From: Tricharina praecox
Lineage: Eukaryota
NCBI RefSeq assembly: GCF_024521635.1
Contig: NW_026250404.1
Coordinates: 1,116,001-1,180,000, forward strand
Direction of reading: 5' to 3'
Length of the DNA stretch: 64,000 nucleotides
Shown here: piece after piece, positions 906 to 59,875 of the stretch
Layout: the number at the start of each line of letters is the position of its first letter
How positions within the stretch are numbered: the first letter of the stretch is position 1
Position numbers and translations under genes: made by a program
The notes under the pieces: generated by a model
Told to the model about the DNA's origin: nothing
Database searches by the model: none
Seen by the model: only the letters and a program-made list of their open reading frames with translations

Positions 906-1458
906 GTTCGTTGCCATCGTGTCTCTCAACACAGCCCCATAGTTCAGCTCCACTTTCCGAGCGCGCAAATCGCACCGCAGCACTTCCCCTCCGAGGAGCG
1001 CCGGTCCGGCTGGTGCGACACAAGCGGATTGCGATCACCAATCCATGTCCCCCTGCATCCGTCCATCCATCCACCCGTCCAACTGCAGCCCTCGGCCACC
1101 GCACGTAAACAAGCCTCGTCGATAGAGTGCGCGTCACCCGGTGCGACAGTACTCGCAGATGGGCGACGAGGGCACAAACAATATATGAATGTGTGACCGC
1201 CCCTTTTCTCCTCTCTTTCTCTCTTTCTCTCTTTCCCTCTCTTTCTCCCACCGTCTCTCCCCAAGCTCATCGCGAGTCCCACGTCCCACCCTCTTTGCGA
1301 CCACATTCGTTTCCGCTCTCGACTTCCGCCCGTCCATTCGTTCCCATTGCCTTAGAATCTCTACCGAGCGCTGTATTCCCGACTCTCACGCTCACTTCTC
1401 AATCCACACTACTACCACCACCACCCAAAAAGGCCGGAAAAAAACAACAATCGACAAG

Positions 1459-1605
1459 ATGACAGACGACCTCCTCGTCAACACGCCCCTGACCACGTCC
1501 GACATCGTCTTCATGTCGGTGGGAGCGATCGGCGTGGCCGCGTGCGCGGTGTGGGCGCTGCATGGCTTCCTGACCAGAAGGAAGCAGCAGGATCTGTGGA
1601 TCTAG
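1459..1605 (+). CDS. Putative 48-aa single-pass membrane microprotein
   Basis: ATG in A-rich context after a CT-rich leader; MTDDLLVNTPLTTSDIVFMSVGAIGVAACAVWALHGFLTRRKQQDLWI has one hydrophobic segment followed by RRK; strong C/G third-position bias like the real genes in the window. Confidence 0.5.
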   Translation: MTDDLLVNTPLTTSDIVFMSVGAIGVAACAVWALHGFLTRRKQQDLWI

Positions 1606-3215
1606 GTGGTGGGCGTGTCGTGTAGGAGGAGGGCATGGAAAGGTGTGTGCATGGAGCCCATGAAGTGAGATGTGATGCTAATGGAATCTACTATAAGGGA
1701 TACCTATTATCGTGAAGCGCAAGCGGAAGCGGAGCTACGAGGGAGAGACTCGCGAGTCGAGCGACGACGAGATTGATGCGCGAAAGAGACGCCGCGGGGC
1801 GACGAGCATGCAACGCGATGGGCGTCGTTTCGCTGGCTGTATATATTACACACATTACTTGAGGCGGCGGGTGTGTGACACCGGGATGGGAACATGCGGC
1901 GATCCGGTTTGGAGGGCGGCGTTGCGGTGCGGGTTGCGCGGTAGGTAGCGGGGGCGTTGGAATGCCGTGTCGGATTTTTAAAAAACACAAGTTACAAATT
2001 GATGGATGAGGAATACCCACTTCTCTCCCGTGCTTTGCAGTAATTTCGTGACTTGCAATTGCAGCCTGTATGTGCTATTTACGCCGTGCGGAACACTCAA
2101 AGATTGTGGCCAGGAGGATACGGTACCGTAGGGCATTGTACCACCCCAATGTCAAGACAAACTTCAGCCAACACGCCAGCAATCATTTTTATGTAGATAT
2201 GTAGGCCGAAGCAATGTACTCCGCAGTCACATGTAAAGGAGGGGGCAGTAAATCACCAGAGAAGCTTATGCGTCCACGCCCAGACGGGGAGGTCTGTGGC
2301 CGTGTGCAAGCCCGCCCGCTAGCTACCTACGCACGGCCCGGATACAAGCTTTCGGGCCAAGGTGGTTCCGGAGCCAGCCCGCTCGGAGGCTGAAGTCGGT
2401 CGGTCGGCCCGAGTGAGAGTATCTATTGGAGGTACCTATTGGAGCTGTGCTGTGCTGCGAACATCATTCACGGCGTGATCATGGACACCTGGCGGTAGAG
2501 TAGAGTACTAGTAGAGAAGACGATTCGCGCGCGGCGCGTCTGGCCGATGAATCATGAGTGCATCACAGCGTGTGACTCGAGCCTTGCGATTCCACGGTTG
2601 AGGCCCGTCTGCAATATATCGGTCGAATCACCCGAGGATCCGTCCGGTCTTCCGGCGCCTCGCTTTTGTTGTGTGAATCTCGATCTCAAGCCTATCGGAT
2701 TCGATGAATTTCCTCGGTTTCCATATCCCCCCCTCCAACTGCCAGTTTTCCATCCCTCACATTCTCACCCCTTCTCGAACGTCGAACGTCACCGTCACCA
2801 GATGACGTTTCTCCCTCCCTCCCCAGGCTGATATTCTCCCCTCCAGGGGGTTTTCTTGAGGATCCAAGGCACAGCACAGCGCCTTGGTTGAAAGCAATAT
2901 ATAGAGCACCCAGGTAACTGTACATCTTCCCTGCTTAGCGACCATGCCTATATTACCGGTACTGCCATAACGTCACTCGTCCTACCTACCTACCAGCCTA
3001 CCTCCAACTACCTGTTCGCCATCCCGGCAACGAGAGCATCGCTGGAGACTGGATGCGTTCGGTGTTCATATAACCCACGCCGTTTTCCGCCGCCGCGGGA
3101 GGTGCTGGAGTTAATCGATATTCCCGTTGAAAGCTTGACTACGAAAAAGACTTCCCTCCTCCTCCCCAGAAGAACAACGACCGCACACACGCAAACACAC
3201 ACGAAACCCCGCAGC

Positions 3216-3701
3216 ATGTCCGCCAAAACCGAAGAAAAGCCACGAGTCTCTGCCCCGGTCGCTGAAGAGGAGGAGGATGACTACTCCTCGTCGGACGAGG
3301 ACTACTCCAGCGCCGACGACGACGACGACTACGAGGAAGAAGTACCACGGCAGCAGCAGCAGGCTCTCGCGCAGCGGCAGGGACAGCAGCAGGGCCAACA
3401 GCAACAACAGCCAGGCCAAGTCTCAGCGCCGCAGGCGCAAGCACCAGCGAAGGAGAAGGGCCACTCCGGCGCGCCCAGCGTAAGGCTGGACCTCAATATC
3501 GAACTCGAGGTTACCCTGAAGGCTAGGATTCATGGAGATTTGACGCTCGCGCTGTTGTATGTTGCTCTACTCCCCCCCCCCCCCCTCCCCCCAACGGCTG
3601 CGGTGGAGTTTTTGTTGCGCCGCAGGCCGTGTTGATACTTTGCTCCGTGCTACAGCAACTGAGACTGAGACTGATGCGACTTTCTTTTGCGCAGAACATA
3701 A
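3216..3701 (+). CDS. Small conserved fungal hypothetical protein (acidic + Gln-rich N-terminus, C-terminal RLDLNIELEVTLKARIHGDLTLALL motif); intron 3557-3694
   Basis: ATG 3216; GTATGT donor at 3557, CTGAT branch and GCAG acceptor ending 3694 give ...LALLT*. The C-terminal motif resembles a recurrent small ascomycete protein family (recalled, not searched). Confidence 0.7.
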
Positions 3702-4633
3702 GCCTGTTCGGTTCGGCCGGGCGGTCGGGTGGCAATGATGATGATGATGATGAGAAAACGAACGCGGGGTCCGGGATGGGGGAGGGGAGGGGGAGGGGTG
3801 GATAATGGGTTATCAATTTCCGTCGAGTTGTTTTTCTTGCTTTCTTGCTTTCTTGCTTTCCTTGGGGTTTCCTATGTATTCTTCTCTCCCTTTCGAGCGA
3901 GTTATCGAGCGTATTGTATCTTGTGTAATTTTTCTTCTTCTTCTTCTCGTCAGTGTGGGCATATCCTCGGTTCTGTAAGATAAAACATCGATATAGACGA
4001 ATTACTACGTAGGGAGCGTCTTTTCTGTGCCTGGTGATGACTTCCTTGATCCAGCCGTGGATACCGGCCGTGGATAACGAGCGGCGACGAAGTTCCTTGT
4101 TACTCGAAACAGTCGTACACGGGGCCTGTAGTGATGTCATGGCATATACAGTAGTGACTATCCTCGATCATCGCCCATCGCCCATCCCCGGCCGCGGTCG
4201 GGTACGATATTTCCCGGGTGGCCATAATGATGAGGTATCCCCCCGGGAGGTGGCCGGGAATATCGGGTAAGATCCAGCATCCCTGCCGAGCGGCCGGGTC
4301 AATCGGCGGAGGCGAGTGATAAGCTGTGTTTGTGCTTTAAGGGATGACAAAAAAAACAAGTGATGTCTGGAATCGCAGTCAGCGCTAGATCTTGGGATCT
4401 CGACACTTAGAGGTGGAGGCAGAGGTAGTCGAGTGAATAGGAGTTGGCAGTGGGCATTCAGCCAACCGAGCAGTTTGAGCTGGTGCCGATCACGGACGAA
4501 TTTGAGGAGGAAGGGGAAGGGCAGCGAGTGAGTGGGATATGTTCCTATCCTCAAATAGCTGCTGTCAGCGCTGATTAAGCCCCATAGGTACCCGATGGGA
4601 ATCTCACAGGGTGAACGGCGCCGGCCGCAAAAT

Positions 4634-5067
4634 AATGGCTCCTACATACGAGCGAGAACAGCAATTCAAGCCCGCCACTGATGTCGGAATGGCTCCTGCA
4701 TACGAGTGAGAATAGCAATCCAGGTCGCTACCGATATCGGCTCGGCTCGGCTCGGCTTAGAATCATCATCCTCAAGCTGGATGTGAAGCCGGACGCAAAC
4801 CGCTGCCGAACGCGCTCAGGGGAAAACCAAAGCTCGTCGCGGTGTGCGAGATCCAGTCTGCGCTCGGAGAGAATTCGGTCGAGTAGTGTATGGAAATCAC
4901 GAGCGAGAATAGCACTCCAGGCCGCTACCGATGTTGGCTCGGCTTGGGATTCTTGAGCTGGATGTAAATTATTGCCGAATGATTACACGTGCCGGATTTT
5001 TCCAGTCGTCGCGGTGTACGAGATCCAGTCCGGGCTCGGAGAGGATTTGATCGAGCAGTGTATGGAA
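4634..5067. repeat. Degenerate nested direct repeats (54-bp unit x2; ~170-195-bp unit x2)
   Basis: AATGGCTCCT.CATACGAG.GAGAA.AGCAAT at 4634 and 4688; 4702-4895 resembles 4899-5067 (shared ACGAG.GAGAATAGCA.TCCAGG, TCGTCGCGGTGT.CGAGATCCAGTC, AGTGTATGGAA). Confidence 0.75.
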
Positions 5068-7171
5068 GCGTATGCTGTGTATGTTCGCGAGAATTCATGT
5101 GATCGAGAAGTTGGTTGTAACTTGTCGCCAAGGTGAAGTCCGCCGGAGCCTGGGGGGTTAAGCTTGGAACTTACAGTATCATACGAGCATCCAACGTACC
5201 TAATGACGAGACACGATATCACCTTTGAAAGAGGTTCGCATTTCGACTTAATTGTAGTTGCTGACACACGCAGGGCCACATGACATCACCAGCTTATCGA
5301 TATCTCCCAGGTGCAAGATTTCGGGGGGATTTTTTGTTGAGCAGGCATCCGAATAAACGAACAAATGAGTGATCTGGTGTGATTCTTCCCATCTCCAGTC
5401 GTAAAGGTGTGTAGAAGAGTCGATTCAATCTCGAAGAAAGTTTGAATCGCACGTAGAGTAGTACTGAACGCTCTGTACGTAGTGGAACGACAAAAAGCTT
5501 GGAGTTCCAAGTGAGGAGATTCTTTGAGCGGATGAAACTCGTATGGTTCTGACATCTATTGTATGATATGTTACCGAATCGGTAGATTTATCAACGAAGA
5601 GATCCGTAACGACCCACAGAGAACAGAGTCTCGTCCAACACATCCTACCCACAGTGACAACAGCTCTCACCAGCGCATCGGTAACTACAAAACATTCACG
5701 CGGACATACCAACCCGTAACCCACCGTACTTCCCAATCCCGTGAAGAACCAAAAAGTCGAGTGCTACCATATGCATCGCTGCGTTTATGTTTTAGGCAGC
5801 CAGCTATAGTAGCGTACTCTGTCACAGGCCCACGAAAACGAGCATAAGCACAAGCACCCGGCGGAAGCCGTCGATCGAAGAAGCAGCCATGCCGCCGGTC
5901 TTGCTTTTGCCCTCGTTCATCCCGCCATCCCACCATCCCGCCATCCCGCCCTGCCATCCCACCCCATCCGGTCGGTTCCGAATCGTGGTACCTATGAGAT
6001 TCTCCAGCCTCCAGCCTCCAGGCCCGTACCGTACGTATGATATGTACTCACGTTTCGCAAAAACGATACGAGTGCAAAGCCATTGCAGGCGGACGGCCGA
6101 TCGATTCCGAAGCCACCTACTCTACACACATACTCTATTTATTCTCCGTGACTTCCTCATATGCCTCATGTGACAGACAGAGACAGAGACAGAGACAGAG
6201 ATCGAGCGAGCGAGGGAGGGAGGGAGGGAGGGAGGGGGGTCCAGAACCATCTCCCGCCCCGCGGGTCTCGCCGCTCCGCCGCACCGCTGCGTGTGGCGGC
6301 GGCGATGGTGGCGGTGGTGGTGGCCACGCTGTCGCCCGCCCCCCCTCGGTCGAGTACAGGGTTCGGCGGTACCGGTATGCATCTGTGGAGATACGTGTTG
6401 TCATGGTCATGGACTCGTGGTGGAGGCGGTTGGGTTTCTCTCTCAATTTCTCGGAAGGGAGATCTCGTGGACGATTCCGAATCTCGTGTGTGAGTGTGTG
6501 TGAGCTATGCACGCTGCAGCGCGAACTCGGTTTTCAGCTGTGTTCTGCTGCGCAGCCTGCGCTAAGCAGACTCACACATAGATACCAGTAGGTAAGTAGA
6601 GTAGGTACCTTGGAACGCGGCGGCGGCGACGGGGCAAGAGAATACAGGATACAGAAGTGTATCGGATACTTGTTTATCACAGCATCGCTCCCGACTCGGG
6701 GAGGATGTCTGGCCGCTTGGAAATCACATTGCGAGGTCGCGGCATCAGTTGGCATCAGTGATCATAGATAAGCACTCGTAAACTGGGAATGGACTGTAAA
6801 AGATGGTGGTGACGTCTATGTAGATAGATGTCCGAAGCCGGCTCATTCTGCGCTCCTCAACAGTTTGAAAATGTCGTCGTTGTTGTTGCGCATCCAGTTA
6901 ATCCGTACATAGCCGATCAACGGGAAAAATATCTCCATATGAGCCATGTAGAGTACTCTACCTACCATGGTGATGTTGCCGTGTCCACAGCCATGCACGA
7001 CGAGTCAGGCCCCCACCATCGGAGTTGGTCGCCGTTAGTTTTGTCGTATCGGGTTTTGCACCTCACTCACTAGGAGATACCGTATGCAGGAGTAGAAAAA
7101 AAAGCAGCAAAGACAACAGATACATACCGTACATGTTTCGATAGATACCCAACATGCATGCACGGCAAGGC

Positions 7172-49656: not shown

Positions 49657-49980
49657 ATATATTCTCCAATATTACGCGTCCCGTCTTTTGGGTTTGCCAG
49701 GTTGTGGTGACGCACTTTTCTTCAGGGTTGGCCGTTACCGCTTTCGGATCAGAAGTTCGACTCGGGGGTTCCGTTGTGTCTTCCGTCCCGAGGGCCGGTA
49801 CACACTCGTCGTTAGTATCTCGATGAACGGCTGTGCGACCACCAACGGCCGTACTACGCCGTCTCCCGAGTGCCAAAGGGAGCTTAAATACGCTGTAACT
49901 ATCAGCAGATAACTTCATATCACCAGCGGGTTAACAGACTGATCTCACACCGTTGCCCTTTATACTGGGTGTCTTACATA

Positions 49981-50125
49981 CTGTATAGTGAAGGGAGGGG
50001 ATAAAAAATACGCTTTTTCCGCATCAGTACGGTCAAAAATCGTATTAGTATGGTTAAAAATACGTATTTTGACTGTCCTGATACGGAAAAAGGCGTAATT
50101 TTGACCCCCTCCCTTCACTATATAG
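49981..50125. mobile_element. 145-bp MITE-like foldback element with TA target duplication (Tc1/mariner-type)
   Basis: ~65-bp imperfect inverted arms (CTGTATAGTGAAGGGAGGGG... / ...CCCCCTCCCTTCACTATATAG); TA at 49979-80 and 50126-27. Confidence 0.75.
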
Positions 50126-50793
50126 TAGCTAGATCAACAGAGGTGGAGGTGTTTGTTGTTGTAGTGGGCCCGGAATTCGTTAGTTATACGAGATTATATA
50201 CGGGCTCGCCTATATATCCCTATGGTTCCACAAATGCGTATTTTTCTAAACACGTGTATCCTATAAACGTCTTAAATGCGTGCCTAAATGCGTATTTAAT
50301 AGCGTGTGCGACTAAAAACGTCAACACTTAAAAGCGTGGAGCGTCATGATTTCGGTCTTAAATGCACGCTTCTTGTATACGTCCCGGTCCATTAATGCGT
50401 CCCAATCGCCAATACGTTCATTGATTAATGCGCTCCGCCACCATATATACACCCACTGTATATACAGGCAGTTGTACCAAGCATACCGCTGGAGAAGCAG
50501 ACGGTGGTCAAAATCTAGATAAAATAGACAAAGAAATCCGCACAATACAAAACACTTCAGAGACTCAAACATTCCATCGCCTAGCCAGATCCATGCTAGG
50601 TAGCAGCGAATCAGCACGATTTCATAACCGGGGGTGATATCGAATGAGGGCTACATCATACGTTCATCCAGCTCCAGCATGTAATCGATATAGCTCGCCG
50701 GATTTTAATGACTTGTTTTCTGCTGTGCGATTGAGACACTGTGTATTAGACTCTGCGTGCGATCGCACCTGTGGATGGAGCTCGTACCTGACG

Positions 50794-53384
50794 TCACTCC
50801 TCTTCGATGCTAAACTCTCGGACAGCACGTGCATTTTTGGCACTCATCGCTTTCCTGCGACGTTGTGGCTGCTGTGATCGTTTCTCTCGTACGTCGTCCG
50901 AGGTATTGGCTATCTTCCTAGCTTTCAAGTTTGGTTTCATCCTGCGGCGCTCGGAAGGAGAACTTAGCCGGAGATGGCCGCTCGGCGGGCCTACCTGCGA
51001 TTCTGGCACCCGGATATTGGCAATAGGTGTGCTTTTGGTGACGTTCTTGCCGGTTACGGATGCATGATCGGAGATAGACCTCCCGACTGACAGGTTTGTC
51101 TGCTGCTCAACACTCCCAATGCCGGCAAACTGTCCAGTGGAAATGGGCGTCAGTGAAAACTGAACTTTCGTTCTCGGATTCGGGGCCGTGGTATTGATGA
51201 CGGTCCGGTCGTCTGCAGAAGAACCCGATACTTCAGCGTTGGTGGTTAGGTTGTGAAGTGGAATCTTGTCTGGACCTGGAAGGACGGTATCGGGGACGGG
51301 GAAGCGGGGTTGGGGTGGGTTCTTGTGTTCATCAGTGCCATACTTGTGCAATTCAAGGGCATATGTACCTCGCTGATGAATATCCTCGGCAGAGTCGTAT
51401 TCCTGCTCCCACCGAGCTGCAGGAACGAGCGAGAAAACTACGCATCCTTCAACTAGCTGGATGTCATCCTGATCCATTCGTTCGACAAATTTGTTGTAAT
51501 CATCTGAATCGTATATTATCGCTTCTTTCCCAGCGCTTCGACGATACCATATACTCATGTCGGCAGATGGCACGGGACCCTTGACAGACTTGCGGGCGGC
51601 ACTGTGGACAGCTCGTAGGAAATCGTCATATTCGAATGCTTTTGACAGTAAAGTCGATATCCTATTAACAACGGCGCGGTAGTGAACATTGACTTCCGGC
51701 TCGGAGAAGACGGCGCTTCCGGAAGACATCGAAGTATTGCTGTTAGTAATTAACTTGGACGTGGGAGAAATCCTTGTATGCTGGGGCTGCTCATCTGCCC
51801 TCAATTTTGACTGCCTGTTGCGATGTTGGCCAATATGTCCTCCCAATTTAACCTGAGAGGACGGAGGAGCTGATAATGGCATAGAGACGGGTGTATGTGA
51901 GGATGGCACGATTGCTGACTCGGTTTGATGACGTGTCCTCTTGCTGGTATTGTTGGAAGGAATAGGCGCCATCTGGGCCCTGTGCTGTTTAGCCGACTTG
52001 ATAACCTTCGGGTGTGGTGATGGGAACGAGCGGAGTGGTTCTATTGTAGCCTTCCGTTCGCTGCGCCCGGCAGTCGGACCCCGGGTTTGTTTTGCGGCTG
52101 TGGTGGCCACCGGCGTTGTTGTTGGCCGTGCGGTCTCACTGCCAAAGTCTCCCGATGGGTTCTGGCTGGTGGTTGTATCTGTAGATTTAGGTTGGGGCGT
52201 AGAAGGGGAAGAACGAGGCGCTTTGCCTAGAGATTCCGGCAGCGCCTTCATATTGGCAACAAGATCGCGGACAGTGGGCCGCTGTGCTATCCTGCCAGTC
52301 TTTGGACGTCCCCTCCGTGGCTTGTCATCCGGGTTCCCCGATTGGCGTCTGACTTCGTTTTCAGCGCGGCGGGCATTCTGGACGTGACGTTGGCATGAAT
52401 TCATCAGGACATCCCGGGCGAGCCTAGGCGTCCAGCCATGACCATTCTCGTTCATTCCATCCACCACTCCTAACCGGCATGAGTATGTGAAAATAAATCA
52501 TTGAGCAGGTTAAGCACTACTCACTTCGAATCATCTCCTCAGCACGCCCGTGGGCAACGTACCATGAAAACGGCATGGAGAGATCGTGACCGCATAGTCG
52601 TTTGGCTTCCGTATAAAAGTGTAATGCGGCGGCATTCCGAGTGCGCTGATCCGCATCTAGTGGTATCCCCATTCGATAACGGAGCAAACCTCCTTTGCCA
52701 AGTCCTTTGGTCACAACCAGATCCACATCAGCTGGCGGAGGCATGCGCATGGCGAGCGCGGGGTTCTGCATCGGAAAGGTGGGGGGTCTCCTGGCACGTT
52801 TGACGCACGTTGGAGGTTCAACCCGACTGTCTGGAATCAATGGTCCATCATCACTATTCTCAATATCATCCTCATCCTCATCCCCGTCCTCATCCACATC
52901 CCCGTTCTCATCCACACCTCTATCCCTGTCTTCATCCTCATACCCATCGTCATCATTCTCGTGTTCATGCCAATGGCCCCCCGCGTCTCGATCATCGCTG
53001 TGGATGATTTCGTCTTCATCGCGGCGGGAAAACACGGCGCTGGTATGGACCGGCTGCCTGGGTTCGGAACCAAAGGTAGAATTGGTCTGGCGGATGCCAC
53101 CGTCAGCACCAATCACAGTGGGAAACAACCATTGCTCTGTATACCACCTTGCGTCTCTTGGACGCGTGTTTGTCTTTGTATGCTGGCTGAGCAGGCAGCT
53201 TCTTCTTGCTCTGATTCAGGAGGGCCTGAATTTGATCAATTGTAGCTTGGTCGAGGCCAGCCAGGCTCAGTACGTTGCCGCTGGCCGCTTCTTTCCGGGG
53301 AACCGGCGCGTCGCGGGCGACACCCGCGTCATCTGACAGGTCGCCGTCGGACTCTTCGTAGTTGTGGGGCCCCGAGTATGACAT
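50794..53384 (-). CDS. Transposon accessory protein (~830 aa, unknown function); introns ~53087-53146 and ~52473-52522
   Basis: Three ORF-track segments are joined in frame by GT..GCTGAC..CAG and GTGAGT..TAG introns; lies inside the TIRs, divergent from the transposase. Confidence 0.7.
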
Positions 53385-54053
53385 TGTGAGAAGGCGGAGT
53401 GAGAGAATGGATAGAGTCGGGCGTAGCAGATGATGGGGAATCTGATGCGCGAGGTTTGGTTCAACAAATATGAGTAGTACCTGGTGGATACGTGAAGAGC
53501 AAGGGAGTAACTACGATGAGAGCTGCGTCGATTGCTACCCCCGGAAACATACGGATCGTGTGTAACATACCTCATGATAGACCGGGTAAGTATGCGCAGG
53601 CCGCCCACGGTACCCACCTCGTATGTACCTGTTATGGTTCTCCGAGCAGCAACAGAGGACATAACATCATTTTTCTCTCTGTCAAACTTTGGACACCCCT
53701 CGAGTTGGCTCCAATAAAGTTCCGCTGTGGAGGAGTCGAGACCAAGCGTCGACGCGAATACCTATGGTTACACGACGGGCGGACGAGGCAAACCTACTCT
53801 AGATTAGAGTCTGAGTCTGAACCTGTCTGCATAAGAGAACTCGCAGCCGCTAGTGCTGTTGCTGTATCGAATGGATCATCTCTTCTCATCTACCCAAATA
53901 TTCCTACACTCTCCATCCTTCGAGTTTCCCCCACGAACGTACATCACTTCCGTACACCCGAGTTGATACGACGCCAGATTTACATAGTAAGTACCATACA
54001 TCGCGAAATAGCAAATTGTATTAATTCATACCCAGGTTCAGTAGTACGGCCCA

Positions 54054-57000
54054 ATGGCGACGCCTTCCAGTCATCAACAAGATACAACCGATCCCTCAGC
54101 GGACGCAGAATCCGGCAATGACCGAGTTGGGAGAGCACCAGCTGGCGATGCAGCAGCCGGCTCCCAAACTCCACTCGGCCACCGATTCCGCGCCCCTAAT
54201 CAATCGAAATCGAATCCCATCTTCAGTGCTATCAGGGCTGCTCCACCGGCATCGGCGTCACAGATCCCGCAGAATTCCGTCGTGCACGGTCTGGTCGCCC
54301 CGCGTGCTCCGTCGAGATATAATTTCGCTCTCGCTCCAACCTCTTCGGCAGGAGACCACGATAGCGATACCCATGGAATGTTTCAAGACTCCCTGGAAGA
54401 TGAGAGTCCTGTTATAGGGACACCCAGAAGCTCTTCGGAATCGCCTAGTACCCCACATCGTGACAAGCGATCGCGGACCGACCACCCCGACACCTCGCCT
54501 GACCCGGTAGGAGTCTTTCCTTGGTGGAAGGAATCACCCATGACATCAGCTCAAAGCGATCACATTAGCTCCGAAGACGAATATGGGTATGGAGCCAATC
54601 AACCATCGGACTCGGATGAGGGTGATGAGCCTGAAGTCGCCCTGGGCGGATATTCTTACCCGGAGGAATTCATTGATGAACTATTCGATGATCTCAACAG
54701 GGACGACCCTCCAATTCCAGACGACGATCCGGAGGACATGCTCGGGGTGGTGGAGGCACTAGATATCTTCGGTTACGGGATACTAAGCGCTTTGACGAAA
54801 CAGGAAGCCGTCTCGCTGTCAATGTTCCTCGCGAAAATCAAGAGCAAGTCGCCACGCGAGGGATATCGAGCATACCAAGAAATACTGGACATTTTGATTG
54901 CTGAACGTCCTGTGGACATTCGTACCATACATGCTATGCTTGAGAGGAAGACCGGAGTGCGACACATACGTTACCAGGTACGCAGACACTGTCCGAGTTA
55001 ATGTTTTGGCTCCCCAATGCTGATACCTACATTACCAGGTGTGCGAAAATAACTGCTATTGTTTTGCCGAAAACCCCAACGCAGAAGCCTGTCCTATATG
55101 CGGAGAGCCTCGTCCTGATCGTAGGCTCTGCAAGAAAACATTCGACTGCATCGATATCATTCATCTCCTCCGTCTGAAGTACTCCCACGCGGCCACCGCA
55201 GCCCGTTTCCAGGTGTACAGAAAAGCACTTGCTGCGGACTCTGGATCCCATTCGGGAGAATTGCGAGACATATGGGATGGCAAGCTCATTCGCCGTCTGC
55301 AGGAAGAAGACATGCTTAACCAAGACACCGATCTGGCCTTTTTTTGCAGTACTGATGGCGTCAACCTCTTCCGCAGAGGCCGCCAGCATTCGGTTTGGCC
55401 TATAGTTCTCGTCAACTATAACCTTTCACCGGACATCAGATTTCGACAGGAGAATATCACTTGTTTCGGAGTTGTCCCAGGACCGAAAAAGCCGAAGGAT
55501 TTCAGTTCTTTCCTTTATCCGCTTGTGCAGCAGTTCAAGGCATTGCACAGAGGTGTCCCTGCGATAGACGGCTCAAGACTCAACGCCGAGTTTCGAATGA
55601 GGGCCTATATCGTCGCCATTGGGGCTGATATGCCTGCAAAGGACATGCTGATGGGACTCTCCGGTCACTCTGCGAAACACTATTGCAACTACTGCCTGGT
55701 TCGAGGAGTGTACAGTCAGAAGTGCAAACATATGTACGCTCCTCTTCGGGCTCCTGCGTCACCCGAAGGAGCCTCCGAGAACGCGAACCCGGAATGGCGC
55801 TCGTACAATGCCGATGCCTTGCCCTTGCGAGACCACGAAACAACTCGGATGCACGCCAGACACGTCGAAGACACTGGTGACGCTGAAGTCACCGAGAAGA
55901 CAGGTGTCAAGAATTACACGGTGCTATTGGAGCTACCATCTATTATCTTTCCTTGGAGTTTTGGGATCGATTCCATGCACTTATTCTACCTGAACATTGC
56001 CCAGTACATGCGAGACCACTGGTTAGGAACCTTTACTCCAAACATATCCACTATGGACGATGAGACAGCATTAGGGAAGGAGGAGCCATACCAAATCTCA
56101 GGAGGCTCATGGCGCGAGATTGAGGAAGATATCAATCAGATGGTGTTTCCTGTCGCGTTTGGTGACAAACCTCGGAGTATCCTTGCAAAAAGGCTCAAGG
56201 CCGCAGAATGGAAGACGTGGGTGCAGGTATGTTTGACTGCCAGCCGCATTAGCCTTGTTTATTTTCTCACCAAGTCTCAGGTTGTATCTCCCATCGTCCT
56301 TCGGAACCGACTCGCCGAGCCGTACTATTCCGAGTGGATGAATCTCGTGGAAGTATGCACAAGAAGCCCATACTCGTTCGAATTGGAACATGCTCCCATA
56401 ATTGAAGCTAAGGGATCAACAGGCTATGACTACGGCGACCGGCTACTCGATTTCCAAGGACCAACAAGCGTCGCTGCATGCTAAGTTTGTTCGTTTCGTA
56501 CATCATTACGAAGCCCACTACTACCAGTACGATTTGTCCCGCGTAGCAGCTTGCAAGACAGTATTTCACGCCTTACTACACGTTGGAAAAGCTGTCGAGT
56601 GGCTCGGCCCGATGTGGAGTTACTCGCAATGGGTAATGGAGCGTACATGCGGACTCTGGACCCCACGGGTGAAGTTAAAGAAGGCTGGATACATCGATCG
56701 GCATCTCTCGCTGGTCATCCTTCACGACACACAGATACAGTCGTTGCCTATGGCAGTTAGGCTTGACATGCTCAGTGATTCGCCGTGTCCCCATATCCTG
56801 AAATATATGCGTCGCCAACTTGAATCGCAACCTGGCGAAGAAGCCGTTGAGGAGGATGACCGCAAGTCGACATATCGCAGTCCCGAACACCAAGCGTCTC
56901 TACATACACGCGCGGGGGAGGTAGAATTGACATTCAAAGAAGTTCGGGCTCTCGTGGATATGCTTAACCTTTACGACATGAGGATTCCCGAAGAATTGAA

Positions 57001-57484
57001 TGCTATTCTAAGGGACCCCAAAAACATCTGGCGGCCCACAAAAATATATGTTCGAGCTTACAAACATCTGCGTACGAATGACCGTCACGTTGAGAATGTT
57101 CTTTCTAAAGCCTATGTGAGGAGCAAACGATTCGAGCCCGGTGTCAGCCGCGATGCAACATTTGTCCGACTCGACATCCAGGGTCAGACATGCTTTGGAC
57201 GAGTTCATTTCTTCTTTCTCTACGAAATAGAGCACGAGAATGAGATTGGTGGTGAAGGGGATGTCGACAAGGCAGTCAGCGTCCAGATGTTTGCATTCTA
57301 CGATCCCATTAGGGTGTTCCTGGATGAAGGTGTTTATCGAGTCCACGCATCCGAAGGTGATCCGGCGTCGATGCCCTCTCGACGACTTACCGTTGTCGAT
57401 GTAGACCAGATAGTCGGGCTTGTCGGTATTGTCTATAACGGTGATGGGGCATTTTTTGTTTGTCGGGACTCATGTTTCTTGTGA
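54054..57484 (+). CDS. CACTA/EnSpm transposase (Transposase_21/Tnp2 family); introns 54978-55038, 56227-56280, 56353-56422
   Basis: C-x3-C/CPICGEPR, LRDIWDG, STDGVNLF, WPIVLVNYNLSP.IRF, PGPKKPKDFSSFLYPL, GADMPA, CNYC, DSMHLFY, HALLH...GPMWSYSQWVMER; spliced frame is uninterrupted. Confidence 0.9.
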
Positions 57485-57586
57485 AGGTTTTCATGGTTAG
57501 ATCGGTTGTTGGGTACTTACAGTGTGTATGCCTGTTGATTGCTGCAGAATGTACGCAGGGAAAAGAATTACGTATGATACGTACTT

Positions 57587-57856
57587 GTCAGCTTTCACGT
57601 ATTGAGAGGCTAATACGCAATGAGGAAGCGCGCAATTATTAGCTTTACGCATAGATGAATAGACGTGTTTACGAACGCGTACGCATATAGAAAGTGACAC
57701 GCTTGTGAGGATAACCGCTAGTCAGCCTTTACGCATTGAGAAACTAATACGTAATGAGGAAGGGCGCAATTATCAGCATTACGTATAGAGAAGTATGAAC
57801 GTGTTTATAAACTCGTACGCATATAGGAAGTGACCCGCTTATGAGGATAAACGCAA
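57587..57856. repeat. 134-bp imperfect tandem duplication in the right subterminal region of the transposon
   Basis: GTCAGC...GAGGATAA.CGC at 57587 and again at 57721. Confidence 0.85.
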
Positions 57857-58540
57857 ATATGTTCTACACGCATATTTGAGCGCACTACGTTTAAAGTATC
57901 AATGTGATTATTGAACTCTACGCATATAGGGTACATCATAAATGCGGCCACGCGCATTTAGTTTCTCAATGCGTGCATGACGTATTTTGGGAGCTCCTAA
58001 ATGCGTCGTGCACGCATTACTGGAACCCTAGGATCTGGGTAAAAAAGGTGTATTTTTTACAACAGTAAAATTTTCGTAAGTAATTCTCAAAGTGCGGTGC
58101 CAGTACTGTCATTCAACGTATTTAGCATTTTTATATAATATCTCCAATCCCTTTAATACGAAGCAATTGTCTACATCTCGCCATACCGTATCTACCTTCG
58201 CGATGGCTATCATCATACTTCGAAGTTCGTAGCGAAAGCGAAAATATAGGGCCCCATTCTTTGTCAATGCCGCTTTCGCGAAGTAGTAATAACATATGAG
58301 TAGCTCCAGTCACTTCAACTTTCTCTAACTGGTTATGAGATTATTTGGATTTGATCAAGTCGTCGCCGTAGTTACCGTACACGCAAAACCACCACAGTGA
58401 GAGTGTATTACGGCGGTCGAAGGTGAGAATAATAGCCGAACATGGTCAACACACTGTGTTGCAACACAGTGCTGGTCGCCCCACACCACAACAGAGCGCC
58501 TACCGAGACAAAAGAGGAGGCAAAAGAGAGAGAGATAGAG

Positions 58541-58680
58541 AGAGCGAAAAAGAGCGAAAAAGAGAGAGAAAAAGAGAGAAAAAGAGAGAAAAAGAGAGAA
58601 AAAGAGAGAAAAAGAGAGAAAAAGAGAGAGTGGAAAAGAGAGCGGAAAAGAGAGCGGAAAAGAGAGAAAAAGAGAGCGAA
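58541..58680. repeat. 10-bp minisatellite (GAGAGAAAAA)n
   Basis: Seen directly. Confidence 0.9.
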
Positions 58681-59399
58681 AGTTGCGAGGGACGGTAGGT
58701 GACAGCGAGGAGAGGAGTTTGGTGGGGTGGGGATGGGTTAGGGGTTTACATGTCACGGAACTACTAACTATCCCTTTGGGTGGAGAGTCCAGGGCGGGGT
58801 ACTCTGTACTGTGCATTAGCGTGTGTTAAATGCATTAGCGTGGGCCATTCAGGCTAGTAGTAACAGTGTATTGAGATAGGTTCGAAGCATTGCAAAAGGC
58901 AATCAACCCACACAGTTAGAGTCATTGAAGGAATGACTCTAGTCACCGAGAATTATTGACTCTAGTCATCGAACAGGAATGACTGAGTCATTCCGCGAAG
59001 TGAAGTCGAGTGGATTGCACTGTCATCGATATTTGGGCGGTTGGTGAAAATGCGACTCACGAGAAGTTCCCGCGACCGATGAGATATTATGATATTTGCA
59101 TAAGAGTGAAACCGCGAATAACAGCCGTGATGGAATTTATTTCCGACATCTCTTTGCTCACTGCTCAGTAGCCAGCCTATCCTAGATGGGCGCTCAGTAA
59201 CCCAGCGACGCCGTCGCCCTGGCGATCACTTCATTGCTCTCTTCTGTGAAATCCAGTAACATTCACATCATGTACATTTTCACCCGCTACCGGCTTCCCT
59301 GCTTTCCTCCACGCCCACCCAGATGTAGACAGATACTCTCTGACCGGAACCCTTTGCTAGAGATGATTCATCTAGCTGCAAGTCCAAGAGACCTTGCTG

Positions 59400-59875
59400 C
59401 TACCAATGCCGTAGACATTCGCCAGCCTCAATGATATCCTGCTTAATGCAGGCTCGTCGGTCAGTAAGCAGTAGCTTCGCGCCATTAAAAACTAGTTCTG
59501 GTTCACATGAGGTGGCCGGAATCTCAAAGATATCCAGAGCCGTACGGGCAATGTCAGGATATGCGGTAACCTTGGACTTCCAAAAAAATGATCGGGTTGG
59601 TGACATAGGGTTCCGGAGCTTCGCGCAGCCAACGGTCATACTGATATAGAATCGGAGCTTGCTGGGCATTTCTGCCACGGCCACGTCCTCGGGAAGTACC
59701 TAGTCGCCGTATGGTTGTCCTGAACAGGTCTTTCATACGGATTAAACCACGTATTACTGAAGCGACAACTCGAATCGGAACTGCCAGTACCAAGATTGTA
59801 ACTAGCAGCCAGGTCGGAAGCCACTGAAAAGTGCAAAACATTACCAACCGGCTTATATGTAGTTTCCCACAACTG
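59400..59875 (-). pseudogene. hAT transposase relic (C-terminal dimerisation domain)
   Basis: YQYDRWLREAPEPYVTNPI / frameshift / FWKSKVTAYPDIARTALDIFEIPATSCEPELVFNGAKLLLTDRRACIKQDIIEAGECLRHW*. Confidence 0.85.

Follow-up and report, generated by a model that had tools for sequence, protein, structure and literature searches.

What can the ends of a single transposon copy tell about its lineage? The question is raised by a 64,000-nucleotide (nt) stretch of the Tricharina praecox genome (the window; contig NW_026250404.1, positions 1,116,001 to 1,180,000), where a two-gene transposon resides on contig C17, in our numbering of the 38.4-Mb assembly. The host is a fungus that we take to be a Pezizomycete. 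An original prediction, made from the letters alone, had described a young and potentially active element of the CACTA superfamily that formed a lineage of its own, marked by atypical CCTA...TAGG ends. Our analysis supports the superfamily and leads to another account of the ends and the activity: the element is a CACTA/EnSpm-type (CMC) cut-and-paste transposon of a Pezizomycete, probably a stranded, expressed member of a CCCTA-ended family, with a right-end lesion that belongs to this one copy.

The letters reported for the borders are exact, as 50219-50239 matches the reverse complement of 58012-58032 at 18/21 positions, and ATC is found on both sides (50216-50218 and 58033-58035). Considering that a C precedes the left CCTA in the window, we searched the genome for CCCTA ends, and compared the element with a non-autonomous sister family in the same genome and with metagenome loci. 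The pattern CCCTANRGT...ATGCG recovered 45 matches genome-wide, vs 9 for a reversed control, and 39 of the 45 are ends of the non-autonomous family. To remove bias the outer C was then dropped from the pattern, with 2 mismatches allowed, yielding 39 matches; C is present at all family ends recovered (35/35) as well as at the left end in the window, the remaining matches being the right end of the window element (with T) and two places with no relation to the family. Neither C44:103793 nor C20:422039 was accepted as a family end. Further ends identified by fuzzy matching in fetched stretches carry the C in 13 of 14 cases. Another pattern tried, CCTANGGTTCCA, gave 11 matches vs 18 for its control, 9 of the 11 being devoid of subterminal repeats, and was attributed to chance.

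Among 21 pairs of ends, spanning 0.1-2.1 kb, an exact 3-bp duplication is located immediately outside CCCTA...TAGGG in 13, while 2 have a 2-bp duplication only, 1 has 4 bp and 5 have none (3 of these agreeing at 2/3 bases); removal of one segmental duplicate with the same flanks leaves 12/20 with exact 3-bp target-site duplications (TSDs). The CCTA...TAGG parse fits 0/21 pairs. In the metagenomes, 14 loci were scanned, the distant marine matches L057-L060 (23-25%) being excluded from the end counts. No locus holds both ends (0/14) and L056 has no clear end, and the three right ends seen (L050, L052 and L055) all read TAGGG. At 92% likeness to each other, L050 and L052 align up to one base past TAGGG, where unrelated flanks begin; the L050 flank matches the assembly at only 64-78%, and so provides no empty site. 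With the outer C at 35/35 ends, and 13/21 vs 0/21 pairs, the family rule is CCCTA...TAGGG ends with a mostly 3-bp TSD. The element was parsed under this rule as follows.

50218..58033, strand not assigned: complete CACTA/EnSpm-type element (ends of the family, CCCTA...TAGGG), in which the absent terminal G would fall at 58033
50215..50217, plus strand: likely left TSD, TAT, 3 bp as in the sister family, putatively assigned in this copy
58033-58036: right TSD partner, partly lost or changed
50218..50239, plus strand: left terminal inverted repeat (TIR), starting CCCTA, 16/21 to the end of the non-autonomous family
58012..58033, minus strand: right TIR, 18/22 to the left TIR, outer base not C
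50233..50467, strand not assigned: left subterminal AATGCG repeats
57513..58017, strand not assigned: right subterminal ATGCG repeats, in two 134-136-nt units

In this copy, TAT|CCCTA stands at the left border and TAGG|ATC at the right one. Most likely, judged by its relatives, the element starts at 50218 with CCCTA, and its right end has lost the terminal G; the ATC of the original prediction would then most likely be only an apparent TSD, since C50218 belongs to the element, and the supposed lineage with CCTA...TAGG ends gives way to relatives in genome and metagenomes that end CCCTA...TAGGG. The right junction is not an assembly slip, as a contig of X1, a DNA sequencing run, crosses it (57633-58273) with 0 differences. 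The simplest account would be one event, a two-base deletion spanning the right junction, next to a TAT duplication; alternatively, a G-to-A change plus one TSD change, or a 2-bp duplication minus one base, may have produced the same letters. The empty-site sequence is identical under the CCTA plus ATC parse and the CCCTA parse, hence an empty-site test cannot separate them. Boundaries taken from a single copy can invent a new class of terminus, to which the proposed empty-site test would have lent apparent confirmation.

The superfamily assignment of the original prediction is borne out by the Transposase_21 domain, the DDE triad, with C(2)C and H(3-4)H between its second D and the E, and the subterminal repeat arrays. 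ATGCG occurs 5 times in 250 nt on the left and 11 times in 520 nt on the right, vs 14 times in the 7046-nt interior, representing ~20 per kb at both ends vs 2 per kb inside the element and elsewhere. The CCCTA ends of the family and the left end of this copy fit the CMCWR and CCC consensus termini, the right end being devoid of the outer base; 2-3-bp TSDs are present in the sister family, with the TSD of this copy being ambiguous. The element is a member of a known superfamily, and the feature that made it seem new is probably a lesion of one copy.

Two genes are transcribed divergently within these borders, with start codons 669 bp apart (53384 on the minus and 54054 on the plus strand). Of seven sequencing runs listed, four were used, X1 (DNA) and X2, X3 and X5 (RNA-like), the latter being taken as RNA only from contigs that skip GT-AG introns; X2 and X3 represent two studies and X5 a third.

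53661..57560, plus strand: transposase transcript, to the extent of the X2 contig, with 4/4 intron joints in X2 and X3
53987-54035 (5' untranslated region, UTR), 54978-55038, 56227-56280 and 56353-56422, plus strand: transposase introns, skipped in X2 and X3 contigs
54054..57484, plus strand: transposase coding span, 1081 aa, spliced frame stop-free
50408..53488, minus strand: companion transcript, spliced contigs covering 5/5 introns in X2 and X3 and 3/5 in X5
53087-53144, 52470-52524 and 51322-51368, minus strand: companion introns, from spliced RNA-type contigs
50723-50787 and 50596-50661, minus strand: companion 3' UTR introns, >440 nt past the stop
51233..53384, minus strand: companion coding span, 663 aa, spliced frame stop-free
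53489..53660, strand not assigned: likely shared divergent promoter, a gap of at most 172 nt between two X2 RNA contigs, the ends of which do not show true starts

Both genes are transcribed and spliced. The two intact, spliced and divergent genes of the original prediction were thereby recovered, its proposed RNA check being positive for both genes in X2 and X3 and for the companion also in X5. Contig depths over the companion (410 and 479) and the transposase (14 and 21.7) were set aside, since contigs cannot rank genes. The predicted spacer of ~670 bp is correct in length between the starts, but most of it is 5' UTR, with a nested repeat inside (see below). The 567-codon minus-strand frame, on the other hand, is not the protein: a 47-nt intron within it (51322-51368) is removed in all three RNA-like runs, shifting the frame so that the companion ends at 51233 after 663 aa. 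With the intron retained the frame would reach 825 aa, with a stop at 50794 adjoining the first 3' UTR intron, and such an alternative form is possible.

The transposase matches Pfam Transposase_21 with E 1.2e-19 (70.8 bits vs a cut-off of 28.6), in line with the domain search that had been proposed. Its catalytic residues and motifs are intact, namely D414, D505, E801, C524xxC527 and H777xxxH781. In a comparison of 89 relatives of at least 500 aa, the triad is conserved in 88/88, 87/89 and 48/48 of those aligned at each position, and C524, C527, H777 and H781 in 86/87, 85/86, 50/51 and 50/51, respectively. Relatives number 5147 cluster representatives at E 0.001, the best ~49% identical, and one related cluster is a basidiomycete 'Tnp2' protein. 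In the metagenome locus L047, a transposase of 61% identity is preceded by a companion homologue in opposite orientation (34% over 290 aa, E 2e-36), and L055 derives from the L047 family by deletion. The head-to-head arrangement has thus been inherited. As side observations, L051 and L052 represent the same locus and part ways over the final 125 bases of L051, and the related transposase gene in L052 is split by a ~4-kb insertion (about 1260-5400).

The companion consists of an acidic N-terminus, a conserved all-helical domain (~aa 205-325), a disordered linker and a PB1-like domain (~aa 525-625). No Pfam family matched it, and only five homologues of the helical domain were recovered, with none among proteins of 817-2330 aa. 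The helical character of the first domain is taken from a model of the L047 homologue (predicted local distance difference test, pLDDT, 81); Foldseek returned no match at E 0.001, and the atlas matches were all below 0.9, while VIA-align gave at best Z 5.2, with a root-mean-square deviation (rmsd) of 2.6 over 62 aligned residues of a helix-turn-helix domain, a hit that is tied with unrelated rows. For the C-terminal part, PB1 domains make up the top 11 of 50 structural rows (Z 4.6-5.8), the best with rmsd 3.1 over 76 aligned residues, for a weak model (pLDDT 55), and the atlas gave a lead of 0.85; the domain looks PB1-like. Tentatively, the most likely role of the companion is that of a DNA-binding or regulatory protein carried by the element, which may oligomerize via this domain. 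In the L047/L055 family a diverged companion is paired with a different subterminal motif, AAGTCG, and such co-variation would suit a sequence-specific binder, in this one comparison. Three companion paralogs with 35-48% identity are located among ordinary genes elsewhere in the genome.

C27:318150-319100, C13:274580-275050 and C27:459470-460890: free-standing companion paralogs, at least two retaining the PB1-like part

Within ~30 kb around each of them there is no transposase match and no family end; the paralogs may represent a gene captured from the host or remnants left behind by old elements.

The leader of the transposase gene is interrupted by the nested repeat.

53680..53908, plus strand: solo long terminal repeat (LTR) of 229 bp, TGT...ACA, located in the 5' UTR of the transposase
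53675-53679 and 53909-53913: flanking duplication CTCTC
53764 and 53871: upstream ATGs supplied by the LTR

The sequence recurs at 12 other genome places. Nine places were parsed at both ends and four remain unparsed; the 5-bp duplication is exact in 5/9, retained at 4/5 bases in 3 and lacking in 1. On these features we assign the repeat to a solo LTR of an LTR retrotransposon, for which no parent is evident in the nine parsed places, no dedicated search for it having been made. PlavakaA or another TGT...ACA DNA transposon was rejected as its source, in light of the 5-bp duplication and the lack of an extended inverted repeat. The copy is 67-79% like its siblings, the nearest being 79% identical. 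As the X2 transposase contig starts at 53661, the LTR lies in the 5' UTR, and both upstream ATGs of a UTR starting there originate from it. The two LTR-borne reading frames would probably lower translation of the transposase.

Is the element then still mobile? Whether searched with its DNA, with the proteins of two exons or with Pfam, the element has a copy number of one in the assembly, such counts being lower bounds, and the quest for other copies with different 3-bp TSDs thus returned no second copy. In X1 the element is at flank-like depth with both junctions present, differing from the window only by two small gaps, at 50211 (a TA repeat by the left junction) and 53538 (a C run in the spacer). 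No empty-site or excision joint was found in any of the four runs examined, where contigs show presence rather than absence and drop rare forms; hence neither near-identical copies elsewhere nor excision were seen in the assembly and the four runs. The expectation of a young, potentially active element finds no positive support, given the single copy, the damaged right end, the nested LTR with its nearest sibling at 79% and the lack of an excision joint in these runs. The reported absence of stop codons typical of repeat-induced point mutation (RIP) is congruent with our data (TpA/ApT 0.68 in the element vs 0.74 for bases 1-50000), but carries no information on age, as the element is single-copy.

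CACTA elements are excised by a DDE transposase and inserted with a 3-nt stagger. By analogy, the transposase, with or without the companion, would load on the subterminal repeats and pair the ends, then cut at the terminal C and insert with the same stagger, while the companion may, tentatively, regulate or scaffold the process. Binding of ends at subterminal repeats, and non-autonomous derivatives, are described for CACTA elements in PMC8195511. The missing terminal G probably blocks excision of this copy. The element would then most likely be the last full-length copy, stranded in place while both of its RNAs are still produced. The most that its products could do would be to act in trans on the ~20 older non-autonomous elements that have AATGCG in common with it.

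Several points weigh against this picture. The CCTA plus ATC parse requires no mutation here, whereas the CCCTA parse requires one event. Moreover, the ends of the sister family match the element at only 16 and 17/21, with an interior that is not alignable; given these 4-5/21 terminal differences, the CCCTA rule is transferred from a diverged family rather than derived from sibling copies. A block of excision by loss of one outer G extends beyond PMC8195511, which in the portion at hand covers whole-end loss only. The upstream-ATG argument holds only with a 5' end near 53661, as a longer UTR would add other ATGs. In simulated neutral decay both frames stay open with P 0.047 at 2% substitution and in 0/300 cases at 3%, so that the copy is recent or under selection rather than old and unselected. 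Finally, a plain analogy of the companion to TnpA is disfavored, because a preprint (10.64898/2026.08.24.746577), in the part accessible to us, restricts TnpA-like proteins to flowering plants and describes the fungal DNA-binding domain as usually fused to the transposase.

The stop-free frames, limiting neutral decay to ~2%, may instead reflect a recent arrival, in which an LTR-bearing lineage jumped or crossed in lately, with canonical ends, the right end being damaged at or soon after insertion and one missing base perhaps being tolerated, leaving the element weakly mobile. Such a history agrees with the lack of CpG or RIP decay and with 0 substitutions in the six element pieces listed for X1. 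The LTR family is however native, with its 12 other places, whereas the search for a decayed sibling of the element came back empty, as did that for an excision joint in the 4/4 runs, bearing in mind the loss of rare forms from contigs. Differing from the favored reading only in residual mobility and timing, this scenario appears unlikely to us.

Selection is the other way to keep frames open. One version, also unlikely, envisions an immobilized element in domestication: the end lesion would have fixed the copy, the upstream frames of the LTR would throttle the transposase, and the host would keep the companion as a regulator of AATGCG arrays. If so, the companion family, with its helical and PB1-like parts, would be of no known kind and free-standing three times in the genome, perhaps analogous, while unrelated, to plant TnpA. 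A broader version, incipient domestication of an old, fixed copy from which the host retains either gene or the pair, and most of all the companion, is improbable. The damaged end, the LTR at 67-79% to its siblings and the 4/22 differences between the ends would suit an old copy, in which both frames are intact and transcribed in 2-3 studies despite the damage, and the three paralogs standing free of transposase and family ends within ~30 kb point in the same direction. Against it, an end asymmetry of 3-4/21 is also found in 8/21 non-autonomous pairs, all catalytic residues are kept, and synonymous sites are saturated relative to relatives, precluding a measurement of selection on the copy from the ratio of nonsynonymous to synonymous substitution (dN/dS).

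Last, the exact ATC on both sides would need no mutation, and the two intact, spliced genes would be accounted for, if the lineage had CCTA...TAGG ends, shorter by one base, with ATC a genuine duplication and the element intact and mobile. This reading is highly improbable, requiring a left flank that ends in C by chance against an outer base in 35/35 sister-family and 3/3 metagenome right ends, 0/21 fitting pairs and no second copy. We consequently retain the stranded, expressed CCCTA-family element with a one-copy lesion as the probable explanation.

The non-autonomous family counts ~20 sites of 0.1-2.1 kb (such as C10:40613-42030, C28:700900-703012 and C47:66559-67993), the copies being 75-94% alike apart from a duplicate. 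Its terminal 8 bases form the palindrome CCCTAGGG, and its ends are closer to L050 and L052 (up to 22/22) than to the window element; no cognate transposase gene was found in the assembly. Two pairs, C27:82326-83897/C59:26680-28251 and C1:1884459/C70:24028, are identical elements with the same flanks, each on one large and one small contig. Since the flanks are identical, they represent segmental or assembly duplicates rather than new jumps.

The surroundings of the window element are rich in repeats. A 149-bp palindromic repeat resembling a miniature inverted-repeat transposable element (49979-50127; 40-nt arms at 88%, ends of TACTG...CAGTA type) is located 90 bp to the left; of 44 candidate places in the genome 40 were scored, yielding 82 matches. 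On the right, a long GA-rich simple repeat with 10-12-nt units (58511-58690) follows at 480 bp, and a hAT dimerization-domain fragment (59400-59699, minus strand; PF05699, E 3.6e-11) at 1.4 kb. The palindromic repeat, the hAT fragment and the LTR constitute a small transposon cluster at the element.

How does the element compare with known systems? The closest in layout is Sly1-1 of Neurospora crassa, described (PMC4592977) as a two-gene CMC element with a DDE transposase bearing C(2)C and H(3)H motifs, the homologues of which in Chaetomium globosum are adjacent and divergently transcribed. Shared with the present element, as far as that description goes, are the ascomycete CMC affiliation, the DDE transposase with a second gene (of unknown function in Sly1-1) and the low copy number, and the Sly layout of a transposase plus a divergent second gene is present here. 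The duplication described for Sly1-1 has a third nucleotide, congruent with the 3 bp of the sister family; on the other hand, Sly1-1 spans 11.5 kb vs 7.8 kb here, and has evidence of recent movement. The divergent two-gene layout is accordingly not new, being known from Sly1-1 and its Chaetomium homologue.

Similarly, the TRC elements of animals and fungi (SmTRC1 and the Tribolium TRC; PMC1636069) share Transposase_21 and ends beginning with CCC, CCCTAG in Tribolium, but are reported with 2-bp duplications, whereas 3 bp prevail here (13/21, vs 2/21 with 2 bp only), and with no separate divergent gene in the account consulted. CCC in animals and fungi, and CMCWR (PMC3227409), are cited as consensus ends, and CCCTA fits the latter, being one base away from plant CACTA. 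Fungal EnSpm elements of the CMCT clade (PMC12730594) also have C(2)C and H(3-4)H between D and E, the clade's TSDs of 2-5 bp encompass the 3 bp observed here, and its ends are CA..TG 'in most cases'; the rust EnSpm begin with CAC, have 3-bp duplications and carry TET/JBP genes, none of which is seen in our element. The main text of that study mentions no CCTA, and no Pezizomycete EnSpm was found in the part at hand. Mobile CMC elements of Cryptococcus are stated to begin with CACTG or CACGG (PMC12810828). No published description of this CCCTA family surfaced in our literature searches, Repbase and subscription journals being outside them. The locus documents a CCCTA-ended family of a Pezizomycete, with 3-bp TSDs, ~20 non-autonomous members and a single full-length relative that is expressed; the companion is a defined protein with a testable role in fungal two-gene CMC elements. 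Like plant En/Spm, as portrayed in the sources seen, the system combines Transposase_21, a 3-bp TSD, subterminal arrays and many non-autonomous derivatives, but TnpA and TnpD originate from one co-oriented unit in plants, whereas here the second protein is encoded by a separate divergent gene without Pfam match or demonstrated likeness to TnpA. Aggregated, CCC and CCCTA ends and divergent two-gene CMC elements are both already known, and the element of T. praecox takes its place among them.

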